Shown here in pieces: positions 3,783 to 27,706 of a stretch of 28,208 bases of DNA. The stretch spans positions 1 to 28,208 of the forward strand of contig CAXHJY010000496.1 in NCBI GenBank assembly GCA_964016885.1, written 5' to 3'. The stretch is from Eledone cirrhosa. Taxonomy: Eukaryota. The number at the start of each line of letters is the position of its first letter. Positions within the stretch are counted from its first letter, which is position 1. Position numbers and translations under genes: made by a program. A model generated the notes under the pieces. That model was not told the DNA's origin and made no database searches. It worked only from the letters and a program-made list of their open reading frames with translations.

Positions 3783-3840
3783 CGGATCTAGCTGTCGAAA
3801 CGGACGGAGCTCAGCCGTCGGTGTCTTGACTCTTTTCCTA
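3783..3840 (+). mobile_element. Fold-back family A, single arm (subfamily A2)
   Basis: GGATCTAGCTGTCGAAACGGACGGAGCTCAGCCGTCGG...GACTCTTTTCCTA then (TA)n. Matches the right arm of the copy at 23794-23993. Confidence 0.85.
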
Positions 3841-3859
3841 TATATATATATATATATAG

Positions 3860-4146
3860 TAAAAAAGAAAAGAACAGTAGAAAATGCTAAAGAGATTTTC
3901 TCTCAGAATAACATCAAAACATTTATTTACAAAATAGAAATTTCCACATTAATTGTACCGGTTTCAGCTTGTATGCTTTTTCAACGACGGAAGTGTATAA
4001 TGCAATTAAATTGCATATTGTTAAGAATAATAAGAATATGCGGAAATATTTTTTTTTGTTTTTACATACATATTTAATGAGAAAAGTTGACATTTTTTCA
4101 TATGGGTACCTTATTTACTGTGGTTAACCCCAATTTCGCCCGGGAT
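3860..4146 (+). mobile_element. Decayed PLE-like fragment with inverted minimal hammerhead and 3' tail
   Basis: Minus strand 3956-3984 reads TTGAAAA-AGC-ATACAA-GCT-GAAAC-CG-GTA. The tail at 4100-4145 is homologous, in reverse complement, to 21094-21140. Boundaries are approximate. Confidence 0.55.
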
Positions 4147-4514
4147 CTATCTATCTATTCGCTTTTCAAATCAAGTGGTATCACTGTTTAAGTCTCACTG
4201 CCGATACCTTGGGTTAATTTCTTCAGGTATTGCTTGCGGTTGAGCAATGCCTTGTGAAAAAACGTGGTAAATGGAATTATTGTGTAAGTGGTTAAGTATA
4301 CCAAAGACATTTGCGCCCGTTAACAGAATTCTCAGGGATATTCAGTGTGGCAATTCAGCACTGACAATTCCGGCTTTGAATTATAGAGATCGTTCAGTAG
4401 ATGAGCTTTCAAAACATATTCCATCTACTCGATCTCGCTCAAAATGAAATGGAAAATAACACGGTGTAGGATCTAACCGTAGGCGAAGAGCTGGAACAAA
4501 TAACTAGACAGTTT

Positions 4515-4700
4515 AATCATGCTTTCTGATTTAGGTATAAGGCCAGCAATATCTTTGGCAGGAAGGAAAAAATCGATTAAATCGAGTCCAGTGCATTACT
4601 GGTACTTTATTTTATCGACTCCTTAAGGACGAAAAACAAAGCTATCTTCGGCGGGATTTGAACTCAGAACGTAAAGGGCCGTAATTAAATGCCACGAAGA
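4515..4700 (-). mobile_element. tRNA-derived SINE (main family)
   Basis: Plus strand has TTACTGGTACTTTATTTTATCGAC...GGCGGGATTTGAACTCAGAACG. Confidence 0.8.
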
Positions 4701-4710
4701 ATATTGCAAT

Positions 4711-4928
4711 AATTATGGCTTACGATTTAGGCAGAAGGCCAATAATTTTTGGCGGTGAGGAAAAGGTTGATTAAATCAACCCCCAATGTTTTGCTGGTAC
4801 TTTATTCTAACGACCTCCTAAGGATGAAAGGCAAAGCTACCCTCGGTGGGATTTGAACACAGAACTTAAACTTATGTAACTATATGCTTGCAAAGCGCTT
4901 TGTCCAACGCTCAACCGGTTACTGCCAA
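4711..4928 (-). mobile_element. tRNA-derived SINE (main family), tandem to the previous copy
   Basis: Same central block and B-box, ending in CTGCCAA (A-box on the minus strand). Confidence 0.8.
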
Positions 4929-5244
4929 AACTATTGAGAGACCAAAATAAGAACGTGAAACAAGAAAAAGAGCACAAAAAAAAGAAAGAAAGAAAGTGAA
5001 TGAGGAAAGAGTTTAAAGAGATTTAGAAGCCAAAGTTGGATGAATGTGGTGATCAGTTAGACATTTCTACAGAACACACTGGAAGCTAGAAAACGATACG
5101 GAAAATTGATATAAAAAAATGTTAAGATAATACTTACATATATTTGAACAATGACTAGGACTATCCAACTTCCTATAGAGTCTCCGCCTGTTAGTTAAAT
5201 GTATCACAAACACACATGTTCTCTTTTCCGCTCTTCTCTATCTA

Positions 5245-5396
5245 CATCTCTCTCCTTCTCTCACCAACTTTCCGCCCTCTCTCTCACCAACTTTCCGCTC
5301 TCTCTCTCCTTCTCTCACCAACTTTCCGTTCTCTCTCTCTCTCCTTCTCTCACCAACTTTCCGCTCTCTCTCTCTCTCTCTCTCTCTCTCTCTCTC
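5245..5396. repeat. Minisatellite CTCTCACCAACTTTCCG x4 in a (CT)n background
   Basis: Four copies of the core separated by variable CT tracts. Confidence 0.9.
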
Positions 5397-5590
5397 CACC
5401 CAAAGACGTACAGCACACCGCTGCATCCATCCACTCCACCTATCTATTTATTTACGCCTATAAGAATGGAGGTGGTTTAAAATACAACAGTGCGTAAAAC
5501 ATTCAAATATTAATTGAATAAGTACTCAATATGCCTAATTAGTGTGTAATTTATATATATATATATATATATATATATATATATATATAT

Positions 5591-5737
5591 AAGAGAGTTT
5601 ATATATAGATCAGAAAATCTGATGAGAAGATCGGGTTGAAACCAGGTCTATAGCATTTACATAGATCCTGAGCTACCCAGCTGTGAAACAGACGTAACTT
5701 TGTATAACCAATAAAGGCCATAATGTGAAACCTCATT
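5591..5737 (+). mobile_element. Hammerhead-bearing short element (family C) between two (TA)n tracts
   Basis: CTGATGA at 5619-5625, GAAAC at 5685-5689, GTA at 5694-5696. Homologous to the reverse complement of 18451-18565. Confidence 0.7.
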
Positions 5738-24953: not shown

Positions 24954-24984
24954 TGTCAATACACACACACACACACACATATAT

Positions 24985-25300
24985 TTATTAAAATAACAGA
25001 TTAAAGTTTAAGCAAAGAATCGCTGCTTTCACCCTTAACGGGATCTTCAGAAGATCCCGTTAAGGGTGAAAGCAGCGATTCTTTGCCAATAAGAAACACA
25101 CGCACCAGTTGCTTTCACTTCAACTTATTTTAATAAATTTATAAATTTAGGAATTTATAAATTTCCGGTTGGTTGGTTCCACAACCAGATGGTTGTTTAT
25201 ATATTGTCAAAGTTCTTTCGTCACACATTCTGTGACCTCTTCAGTGACTGGGGATTCTTTTCTTTGTTTTTGTGCCTCTCCTTTGTTCTGTCCTACGCCA
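24985..25300 (+). mobile_element. Fold-back element (family D) with perfect 37-bp palindrome
   Basis: Arms at 25012-25048 and 25050-25086 with a 1-nt spacer. The minus strand across the centre reads CTGAAGA-TCCC-GTTAA-GGGT-GAAAG. The downstream region is homologous to 15652-15835. Confidence 0.8.
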
Positions 25301-25478
25301 TCTTGTTTCTCTTGAGAAACAAGAGCTTATTTTGCGGGTGATATGGCGCATGTCTTTCTGGCATGACACCCATAATTTTGATTATCTTAATTTTGAATAT
25401 AGATATATAAATACGGCTCCTTAATTGTAGAGCTAACTCTGTTGAAAGGATTTGACTGCTGTTTCTAGTTGTCGATAA

Positions 25479-25645
25479 CCCAACTCTTACACGGGAGGAC
25501 GCCGTCCGTGCAATTTTTGCTCGGAGGAAACTTTACAAATGCTGTTTTCGACGGACCAACTCCTAAACAAGAAAGACAAACTGGTAACTGCATGCAAACA
25601 CAGATTGCCTAGGACTTACCTCGCCCTCAAACCCCATAATGACCC
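25479..25645 (+). mobile_element. Penelope-like element ORF C-terminal remnant (end of GIY-YIG endonuclease region)
   Basis: Manual translation PNSYTGGRRPCNFCSEETLQMLFSTDQLLNKKDKLVTACKHRLPRTYL matches, from memory, the PLE C-terminal pattern Y-x5-C-x-LC-xx-EK...LLNKRxEL-xxx-C-R/K-H. No start codon, and it is absent from the ORF track. Confidence 0.72.
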
Positions 25646-25678
25646 GGGGGGTGGGGGGTGGGGGTGGGGGGTGGGGGG
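25646..25678 (+). repeat. (G5-6T)n tract, G-quadruplex-capable
   Basis: Five G-runs separated by single T residues. Confidence 0.8.
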
Positions 25679-26079
25679 TTAGACAAGGGCTGTAACACCC
25701 CATTTGCCGACTTTGTAATGGGTAACCCCTGCTTGCAAAGGTAGACGTAAGATCTTCTTTTATATCATTTTATCGTTTCCTCTATATTTCCTTCTTCCCC
25801 CATCCCTTCCTAGTCCTTCCAACCCAGTCCAGTCCTCCTTCTTTGTCGTCGTCCTTTTCACTTTCTCGCCCACCCGAGGCAGCCCCTCGGTCCTTTGTAG
25901 CCTCAGTACCCCCACCCCCTATTCTATGATAGAATTGGCCGACTCCGCTTTTTATAGCAGATGTGATAGACCCCATATACTTGCTGTCTTATCCAATGAC
26001 TGCCCCATTTCCGTGCTTTCTACATTTCTTAGTGGTATCTCTGCTTTAATTTCTCGTATATCAGTATTTATTGGGGGGG

Positions 26080-26332
26080 GGGGGATTCTGAATTAATTTT
26101 CCGCATCAAATTTTTCATATACCTCGTACGAGCATTTATGTAGTTTGCACTAGAATTATGTATCGTAACGGCACCCTTAGAGATAGTATTAGTATTCATT
26201 TTCGGGATTCTGAATTATTATTTCGTATTGGTTTATTTTTTGCACTGGGTGATTGCTAACCTTGTGCCTAGAGTAGAAACAATTATTTCGTATTAGTTTC
26301 GGGACTCTGAATTATTATTTCGTGGTAGTTTC
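26080..26332. repeat. Dispersed direct repeat GGGA(T/C)TCTGAATTATTATTTCGT x3 with an embedded SINE tail
   Basis: Copies near 26082, 26204 and 26301. A SINE 3' piece TGCACTGGGTGATTGCTAACCTTGTGCC lies at 26241-26287. Confidence 0.7.
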
Positions 26333-26775
26333 TTTAGTATTTTGGCCCCCCACCCCCACTTGTTGACCTGTCACCGTAAGATATACTCGGTTGATTACTA
26401 CTAACTCTTAAAATGGTCTCATTACAATTCCGTCCCACCTAGTAAACTTTTCTATAGTTTAGCAGTTCCAGTGAGAGACTTGATGGCTGTCGTTAGGGAA
26501 TAGTAACCAGAAATTGTTTTTCTATATTTTTAACATTCTTGGTATTCTTCTATATATTTACTCCATATCCCCCCTCCCTAGTATACTTGCTTGACCTCCT
26601 GCCCTTCTGTAGTTGGTACTATAAACGCACGACTAGGTTTCCTCCACTCCCTCTCTCTTCTACTGGCAGGTTCAGCTACCTCTTCCTTCCACAAATTGCC
26701 ATGATAGAATTATGTGTCTCAACAACAAACTTTTGACCAATCCTTGTGACAATCACTTTTACCATATATAGAATT

Positions 26776-26863
26776 ACCCCCTGAGAAGCTCGGCTATTCA
26801 TATACCAGGATAAAAATGTTCATTTAGTCCAGAACTAGCCGTCGGGGTCCTACTCGTTCCTAT
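26776..26863 (+). mobile_element. Family A-related copy retaining the hammerhead 5' half
   Basis: ACCCC-CTGAGAA-GCTCGGCTATTC...GTCCAGAACTAGCCGTC-GGGGTCCTACTCGTTCCTA then (TA)n. The GAAAC segment between the two AGCCGTC repeats is missing. Confidence 0.7.
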
Positions 26864-27510
26864 ATACATAAATATATATATATATATATATATATATATA
26901 TATATAATTTGTTCCATACACCAACATAATTATAAGAAGGTTAGTTATATTACTAAATTTCGCTCCACAAAATTTCCTGATCTGATTATAGGTAGCGTCG
27001 TTCATTAGGAATGGTAACGAAAGGTTCACCAGAAATTGTAGAGTTAATGTTTTTATATCGCCATAAGCATATTTCGTCACCATGTAAATAATTTTTAGAG
27101 CTTCTAAAACGTAGATAGCTTTCAATTCTTGATGTCTTGTTTAATGGGACATTTGATAACTGCTTCCTGCTTCGAGATAAAAGCTTATACAACCTACAAA
27201 CCTTCTAACAGGCAATGATATAGATGTCTTCATCCCTAGAACAATTTATTATTTCTGTGTGGTGCCTGCGTGTGTGAGCGTGCGTACGTGTATTGAAGGG
27301 AGAGAGAGATGTGAACATATATATAAATATATATACATATATATGAAAATAGGGAGAAAAAGACGATTATTAGGAAGAAAAATATATTTTTTTCCTTTTA
27401 TATATCAAGTAAAGTAACGGAGTAAATAATGAAAACACTCCAGTACTCTCTCTCTCTCTCTCTCTCTCTCTCTCTCTCTCTCTCTCTCTCTATATAATAT
27501 ATATATATAT

Positions 27511-27706
27511 AACGAAGGCAATGTGGTAAGGAACCAGGTGGACCATAACGCACCAAAGTACTCAATACTTAGGGTAGTAGAGTGGGTAATAGGAACGAGT
27601 AGGACCCCGAAGGCTGAGCTCAAGCCGTTTCGACGGCTAATTCTGGACTCAGAATTAGCCGTCGAAACGGCTTGAGCTCAGCCTTCGGGGTCTTACTTGT
27701 TCCTAT
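27511..27706 (-). mobile_element. Fold-back family A (A1), full copy
   Basis: Nearly identical to 7351-7554, with a shorter apex (TTCTGGACTCAGAA). (TA)n on both sides. Confidence 0.92.

Follow-up and report, generated by a model that had tools for sequence, protein, structure and literature searches.

Hairpin-shaped insertions of Penelope-like elements (PLEs) recur along a 28,208-nucleotide contig from Eledone cirrhosa (CAXHJY010000496.1, positions 1 to 28,208, assembly GCA_964016885.1; hereafter the window), one of the contigs of the microsatellite-rich 3.0-Gb genome that we searched. Their architecture is that of head-to-head 3' PLE fragments with a one-sided tail, set in (TA)n; it is real, and largely known already. 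One feature seen here, a sharp 5' end that coincides with promoter-like motifs, is not described in the passages of PLE literature covered. The 5' ends of the hairpin arms pile up at a base particular to each family, and this base is likely the transcription start site of the promoter in the element's own pseudo-long terminal repeat (pLTR), where reverse transcriptase (RT) would run off its template and the complementary DNA (cDNA) would fold back. We put the probability of this reading, which comes from sequence comparison, at roughly 0.6.

Families A to F are the elements of a first-pass annotation of the window, and H and I are two further families. The 5' ends of their arms were placed on curated natural long copies as references, and the positions of ends and hot-spot windows were counted from G12, the G of the hammerhead GAAA. 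Arms were pooled from an unbiased genome sample (118 stretches of 10 kb, picked by position), from the flanks of loci and, for patterns that begin at G12, from the first 30 matches on chromosome 1; central matches targeted to family A were excluded. Both arms of each pair were counted, so the arms are partly non-independent. Scanned against a geometric null, each of families A to E had a hot spot (p ≤ 0.0005), its best 15-nt window holding 69 of 98 arms in A (−22..−8), 17 of 45 in B (−143..−129), 12 of 57 in C (−99..−85), 28 of 71 in D (−29..−15) and 13 of 41 in E (−69..−55). Therefore, truncation is not random in the five families tested, and the uniform spread of inversion points that the first-pass annotation had named as evidence against its own rule was looked for and not seen. 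Ends were also concentrated in H (27/39 arms at −24..−16) and in I (8/17 at −55..−45, ~37 nt upstream of the ribozyme). In family F they clustered at −53..−21, in a score-selected and thus biased set that was kept out of the hot-spot test, there being no unbiased one.

Counts across the genome place the family A edge at the same position. Exact 25-mers numbered 8637 at −18, 1944 at −34 and 1620 at −100 (the last two with one N). The count thus dropped from 8637 to 1944 within 16 nt, and then just to 1620 over 66 nt with the remaining ribozyme. In contigs from public runs, family A had loose ends at −19..−17 and a summed depth ~20-fold higher downstream; these runs are of unknown kind and cannot show transcript starts.

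Motifs expected of a promoter lie around the hot-spot base, taken as putative +1 and used as the origin of all motif offsets. In A, A2, B, D and E the base itself is an initiator (Inr)-like A; motifs of this kind are found 4–6 times per 250 nt. Families H and I were examined after the idea had formed: in each, the sole perfect TATAWAWR between −185 and +20 starts at −30 in H and −33 in I, with CCAAT boxes at −84 and −86, respectively. CCAAT or ATTGG is present at −57..−92 in most A, B, H and I references, near −90 in family A, and one sub-lineage of E has CATAAAAA at −32. Family C has a different set, with a YY1-type motif at +12..14, an NRF1-like one at −21..−28 and an ETS-like one at −35..−37; the YY1-type motif matches 10 bases of a mouse L1 site given in a passage of PMC11602158. 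Overall, Inr/TATA-type motifs were found in E, H and I, Inr with a weak TATA in A, Inr only in B and D, the YY1/NRF1/ETS combination in C, and none in F. By eye, no Drosophila-type downstream promoter element was seen at +28..32 in family A. Promoters of this kind have precedents: an internal promoter with Inr is described for Drosophila virilis Penelope in part of PMC2377424, and an Inr-like motif in a pLTR is noted in a passage of PMC3846280.

The junctions between arms indicate how the hairpins arise. The 21 unbiased family A hairpins had 20 distinct junctions, with frequent short templated inserts, and the hairpins therefore form anew at each insertion. A single recurrent A junction was found in three sub-lineages, with matching arms in each. 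Over 44 nt of 38 A pairs, arms differed by a mean of 3.4 within pairs vs 8.0 between them, and differences ran in the same direction in B to E, which supports one template lineage for both arms. Where tails could be classified, a long arm was paired with a short one in 35/37 A, 10/11 B, 8/12 D and 4/5 C pairs. The hairpin at 27512-27706 has arms with two different sub-lineage tail types, yet they have one private change near the cleavage triplet in common; this pair of differences occurs together in none of the other 29 top matches.

Copying of one template, run-off at +1 and fold-back fit best with these fresh junctions, the same-lineage arms, the long-and-short pairing and the family B pairs whose two arms end at one edge (below). 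The PLE enzyme would cut (TA)n and start copying in the tail at one of two sites. The template RNA would begin at the pLTR start site, only 60–350 nt upstream of the point where copying starts, so that a short, strong-stop-like cDNA would result. Its end would turn back, either at once or at a downstream microhomology, and the folded-back end would be copied to the second tail site, which would join the other side of the break. The closeness of the hammerhead to the axis would follow mainly from the packing of promoter, ribozyme and tail into one pLTR. We hold at even odds a fuller proposal. In it, PLE strong-stop cDNA is started in the tail just downstream of the pLTR start site, RT leaves the RNA at its capped 5' end and the cDNA turns back on itself; TA-flanked hairpins of the order of 10^5 would stem from this abortive route, and their axes would be a fossil map of family start sites. 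The start site of family A would then halve the hammerhead, so that the mRNA of the element would be without a ribozyme, with self-cleavage left to read-through RNA.

Several observations weigh against a start site and a simple fold-back. The initiator idea arose after A, B, D and E had been viewed, and core-promoter consensus motifs are short. The hot spot of C has no Inr match, there is no TATA at −30 in B, C, D or F (B has CCAAT only, D and F neither), and the TATA-like stretch at −29..−31 in A is weak (background 0.17–0.35) and absent from A2. In B, D and H the hot spot is also the 5' edge of stem I. Families J and K, whose references are poor, showed no clear hot spot, and family D arms are still lost upstream of theirs (17/72 at −21..−100). 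All five family E pairs were short and short, with 0/5 long and short, as judged by a tail call that is unreliable in E. Several junctions have loops of 0–1 nt, sterically hard for a single snap-back. Among the loci examined, no full-length element with two direct pLTRs was found.

The first-pass annotation had explained the axis differently, by a rule for all families in which the hammerhead fold stalls RT and offers a self-priming site, with the inversion in or beside the ribozyme. As a statement of position this held for A (hot spot in apical stem II), B and D (first base of stem I) and H (stem I edge), and plausibly for F; it did not hold for E and I, where the hot spot is ~37 nt upstream of the ribozyme, or for C, where it is 60–70 nt upstream. 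Per-nucleotide termination inside vs upstream of the hammerhead, calculated after removal of arms without any upstream match (five from A, three from B and one each from C, D and E), had ratios of 11.6 in A, 3.4 in D, 2.2 in B, 1.1 in C and 0.3 in E. Stalling would account for the enrichment in A, B and D and for the H and F clusters; it also agrees with the long, stable stem II of A (~50 nt) and B (~115 nt, fold z −4.7), and with family C, where one arm starts inside the hammerhead, at −32..−13, in 5/11 pairs. It does not account for the ratios of C and E, for hot spots well upstream of the ribozyme, for a structural place that varies by family, or for the low loss of A arms across core and stem I. 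In 7/12 B pairs the two arms extend to one and the same base, at stem I's 5' edge, rather than looping out the ribozyme, a pattern not expected from stem-I fold-back. The distance from axis to core, which the annotation had singled out as a check, ranged from −3 to 234 nt in the 15 of 71 inverted-repeat rows with a descriptor-found hammerhead. Thus, the hammerhead as an RT stop, the more striking claim, does not hold generally and is not supported as a general rule; we consider a stall in all families unlikely, while a secondary role for the hammerhead as a re-priming site is possible in family C. Two further sources of the edge were rejected. Hammerhead cleavage fails because its scissile site, still intact, is found farther downstream, and the hot spot is never the cleavage site in any family; a splice acceptor at the family A hot spot fails since no common upstream exon is attached.

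Run-off at the start site could also be combined with separate priming from both sides of the break, one per tail site, with the two cDNA ends joined by template jumping or host end-joining. The 0–1 nt loops and templated inserts of up to ~30 nt would follow readily, neither arm is consistently longer, and the two tail types of the 27512 copy would be explained; a PLE protein that cuts and extends both strands, and is predicted to be dimeric, is described in part of PMC11167929. However, arms agree by sub-lineage in nearly all pairs, and strict long-and-short pairing would demand an extra rule, as the in vitro start sites reported in that part of PMC11167929 are alike on both strands; we regard this route as rather improbable. 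The fixed RNA 5' end might instead arise post-transcriptionally, as when a 5'-3' exonuclease is halted at the hammerhead fold or at bound PLE protein. Such a halt would suit B, D and H, where the edge coincides with the base that opens stem I, and E, where a small stem begins 5 nt downstream, but the edge of A cuts through stem II and the positions of TATA at −30/−33, CCAAT and YY1 would be left unexplained, which makes this origin quite improbable. Amplification of a few master hairpins as whole units, in the manner of miniature inverted-repeat transposable elements (MITEs) or short interspersed nuclear elements (SINEs), is very improbable: 40 top matches do align with the 27512 copy over all 195 nt, a D junction was seen three times, and in family E one spacing recurs six times among the first 100 matches listed, but the unbiased A junctions are nearly all distinct, and the recurrent one lies in three sub-lineages, each with matching arms.

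The hammerheads, all predicted from sequence, have an intact cleavage site in the copies, and differ between families. A long family A copy folds as a three-way junction whose stem II covaries between sub-lineages, and its core has U3-A8 in most copies; a search with the canonical CTGANGA pattern gave 70 mostly unrelated joins for this family. In A hairpins the hammerhead is represented by its 3' half alone; only long copies have the 5' half (26776-26799 in the window). Type I hammerheads were found in B, C, F and H by descriptor or inspection, and those of D and E have non-canonical core bases. The natural core of D is CAGAAGA, the CTGAAGA in the window arising through fold-back. In the window copy (25048-25086) the stems are kept, with a CAGAAGA core and U at the cleavage position, and the 3' half has 30649 exact genome matches; this ribozyme is possibly inactive or a variant. 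That of E (15442-15479, − strand; 8010 exact genome matches) has GCAA for GAAA plus U3-A8, fixed in the family, and related copies at 3956-3984 and 18223-18252 (−) retain GAAA. The palindrome beside the E core is natural family sequence, and the long arm ends farther out, ~37 nt upstream of stem I. Among the best 150 of 180 rows of an Rfam search there was no hammerhead family, and there were many sub-threshold microRNA (miRNA) matches. The part of PMC4209133 on minimal PLE hammerheads describes features common to those seen here, namely type I folds, a palindromic stem III, U3-A8 and opposite-strand pairs 100–700 bp apart; stem II is far longer in A and B than in the hammerheads described there.

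Self-BLAST of the window after simple-repeat masking confirmed inverted arms at all five places where the first-pass annotation had seen a shared architecture (E 7e-7 to 2e-51), and its TA flanks proved common in the genome sample: the 118 stretches held 71 TA-flanked inverted-repeat rows, some overlapping, 15 of them family A. Parts of that annotation were revised. In the stretch at 24985-25300, read as one element, a D hairpin adjoins a C fragment, and there is no TA on the right side. Neither 3783-3838 nor 25482-26863 forms a hairpin, the former having one arm only and the latter being a long A copy. TA directly follows the end of the long tail in 112/117 A, 21/22 B, 33/35 C, 18/18 E and 11/12 F copies. 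Two pairs of family A elements lie tail-to-tail on one TA run, at 7352-7784 and at 20757-21095, and make larger inverted repeats around the microsatellite. MITEs would have fixed symmetric termini and fixed internal sequence, and here ends are asymmetric and junctions variable. Non-LTR retrozymes (LTR, long terminal repeat) are head-to-tail tandem units with a complete hammerhead in each, according to part of 10.64898/2026.07.22.740005; no such tandem arrays occur in the window, where copies are single or head-to-head.

Families A, C and D are endonuclease-positive (EN+) PLEs, with an open reading frame (ORF) for RT and C-terminal GIY-YIG upstream on the same strand. RT-like and GIY-YIG-like frames lie upstream of long A copies, and within 1.5-kb flanks a same-strand PLE ORF match was upstream of 24/30 long arms in C, 7/18 in D, 3/14 in B and 2/8 in A. 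A link of B to a PLE ORF is probable (one of its three links spans a TA run). Matches in these flanks were weak in E (1/18) and H (one of its own), and F had none. In family I an RT and C-terminal GIY-YIG ORF lies upstream of the 3' repeat on the same strand. A Pfam search of family A ORFs found nothing, and family C matches PF01541 at E 2.7e-4, just under the cut-off. Naiad is unlikely for C, because the C endonuclease is C-terminal. At L029:2376-2600, as in further C copies, the tail opens with ATG and an open frame of ~28 codons, which would be expected of a tail that contains the ORF start; the run-on at L029 was rejected as such a start, being another repeat. At locus L178 (−) an E copy is preceded by a 198-aa frame that resembles the C-terminus of a long interspersed nuclear element (LINE) RT, the insertion being inside family E or upstream of it. 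Read by eye, A, D and the B-linked ORF have a CxCX5C linker and CxxC/CxH motifs around the conserved E and N; linker, motifs and (TA)n insertion are common to the Hydra clade as described in section 11 of PMC8557442, a likeness by motif. Points of difference from that description are U3-A8 with a long stem II in A and CAGAAGA in D. Families C and I have CX4CxxC before the GIY-YIG region, which likewise matches by motif the CX2-5CxxC linker of Neptune-type PLEs.

The proposed route has relatives outside PLEs. Retroviral minus-strand strong-stop DNA is made when RT, starting near the 5' end of the RNA, runs off it, and inverted 5' ends of L1 arise by twin priming during target-primed copying. 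Strong-stop DNA is then transferred to a 3' repeat, whereas no such transfer was seen here, and L1 inversions join non-overlapping segments, whereas the arms of the window families mostly overlap. Among PLEs, passages of PMC8557442 and PMC3846280 give the standard EN+ features, an inverted 5' copy, a one-sided tail and (TA)n targets, and the window elements resemble these EN+ PLEs in having a head-to-head, inverted and 5'-truncated copy, a tail at one end, junction palindromes, (TA)n and a hammerhead near the 3' end. Self-priming has been proposed before from head-to-head palindromes (PMC3846280, in part), and these passages treat the origin of head-to-head inverted pLTRs with a one-sided tail as an open question. 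They do not describe a sharp 5' end like that seen here, particular to each family and aligned with promoter motifs. The family A insertions of this genome differ further in being mostly ORF-less, pLTR-only hairpins with tails of ~55–135 nt. In vitro, the Poseidon PAc enzyme initiates internally at two tail sites on uncleaved RNA, according to part of PMC11167929; two internal RT starts that define the tail, AT-rich targets and an uncleaved template are likenesses, and the parts covered make no mention of products that fold back or of 5' run-off from a start site. In the literature searched, we found no link of PLE inversion points to a start site or a hammerhead; subscription papers and supplements, which may bear on this, lie outside that search.

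Table 1. Elements and element parts in the window, by family (positions on the 28,208-nt contig; arm starts and 5' ends counted from G12)
Feature	Position	Strand	Remarks
Family A (A1) head-to-head hairpin	7352..7551	long-tail arm −, short arm +	axis ~7491; arms start at −17/−18
Family A (A2) hairpin	7588..7784		axis ~7647; TA run common with 7352..7551 copy
Family A hairpin	14311..14498		axis ~14447; left flank an impure TA run
Family A hairpin	20757..20889		axis ~20783; truncated downstream of GAAA
Family A hairpin	20924..21095		axis ~21057; right arm interrupted
Family A (A2) hairpin	23795..23992		axis ~23852
Family A (A1) hairpin	27512..27706		axis ~27647; junction recurs elsewhere in three sub-lineages
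Family A single short arm, no hairpin	3784..3838	+	(GA)n and (TA)n flanks
Family A (A2) partial hairpin	6473..6630		junction deletion
Family A PLE ORF, C-terminal end	25482..25646	+	89% to L120 endonuclease region
Hammerhead region of long A copy	26776..26863	+	stem I, core and long stem II present; deletion of GAAA and stem III
Hot-spot base (putative +1) of long A copy	26826	+	within 26776..26863
Family B hairpin	23278..23757		type I hammerhead on − (23491-23346), complete, stem II long; first arm ends 23491 (stem I edge, putative +1), second starts near 23496 and bears long tail
Family D hairpin	24985..25086		axis 25049 on A of natural CAGAAGA core; right arm cut, joined to C fragment
Family C (Neptune-like PLE) 3' fragment	25087..25324	−	hammerhead 25248-25206; YY1-like motif 25304-25296; 5' end at −89; small fold-back ~25302-25324
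Second family C fragment, single arm	15654..15862	+	5' end at −77
Family E element	15292..15573		variant hammerhead on − at 15479-15442 (U3-A8, GCAA); long arm ends 15518 (putative +1), second starts 15524 inside tail
Family F degenerate hairpin	22941..23143		family core with extra base; junction ~−31, near stem I
Family H single arm with hammerhead	21135..21219	−	5' end −22 (family hot spot); 3' boundary approximate

Other repeats of the window were also recorded. Family G is a hammerhead-bearing, TA-flanked element at 5619-5735 (+) and 18453-18542 (−), absent from the first random sample. A very abundant short repeat family occupies 1153-1330, 4539-4930, 10887-11194, 18306-18471, 21249-21515, 22028-22171 and 24737-24865, on both strands. 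A further short interspersed family is present at 8635-8789 and 16150-16302 (80% identical), and a family A copy elsewhere in the genome (L040) adjoins it.

Extrapolated from the 118 stretches, TA-flanked hairpins would number in the order of 10^5 genome-wide. Many of the short TA-flanked hairpins of this genome are by-products of PLEs, and could be mis-annotated as MITEs, SINEs or miRNA precursors. If the base-precise, family-specific 5' end does align with promoter motifs as proposed, PLE promoters would be readable from genome sequence.

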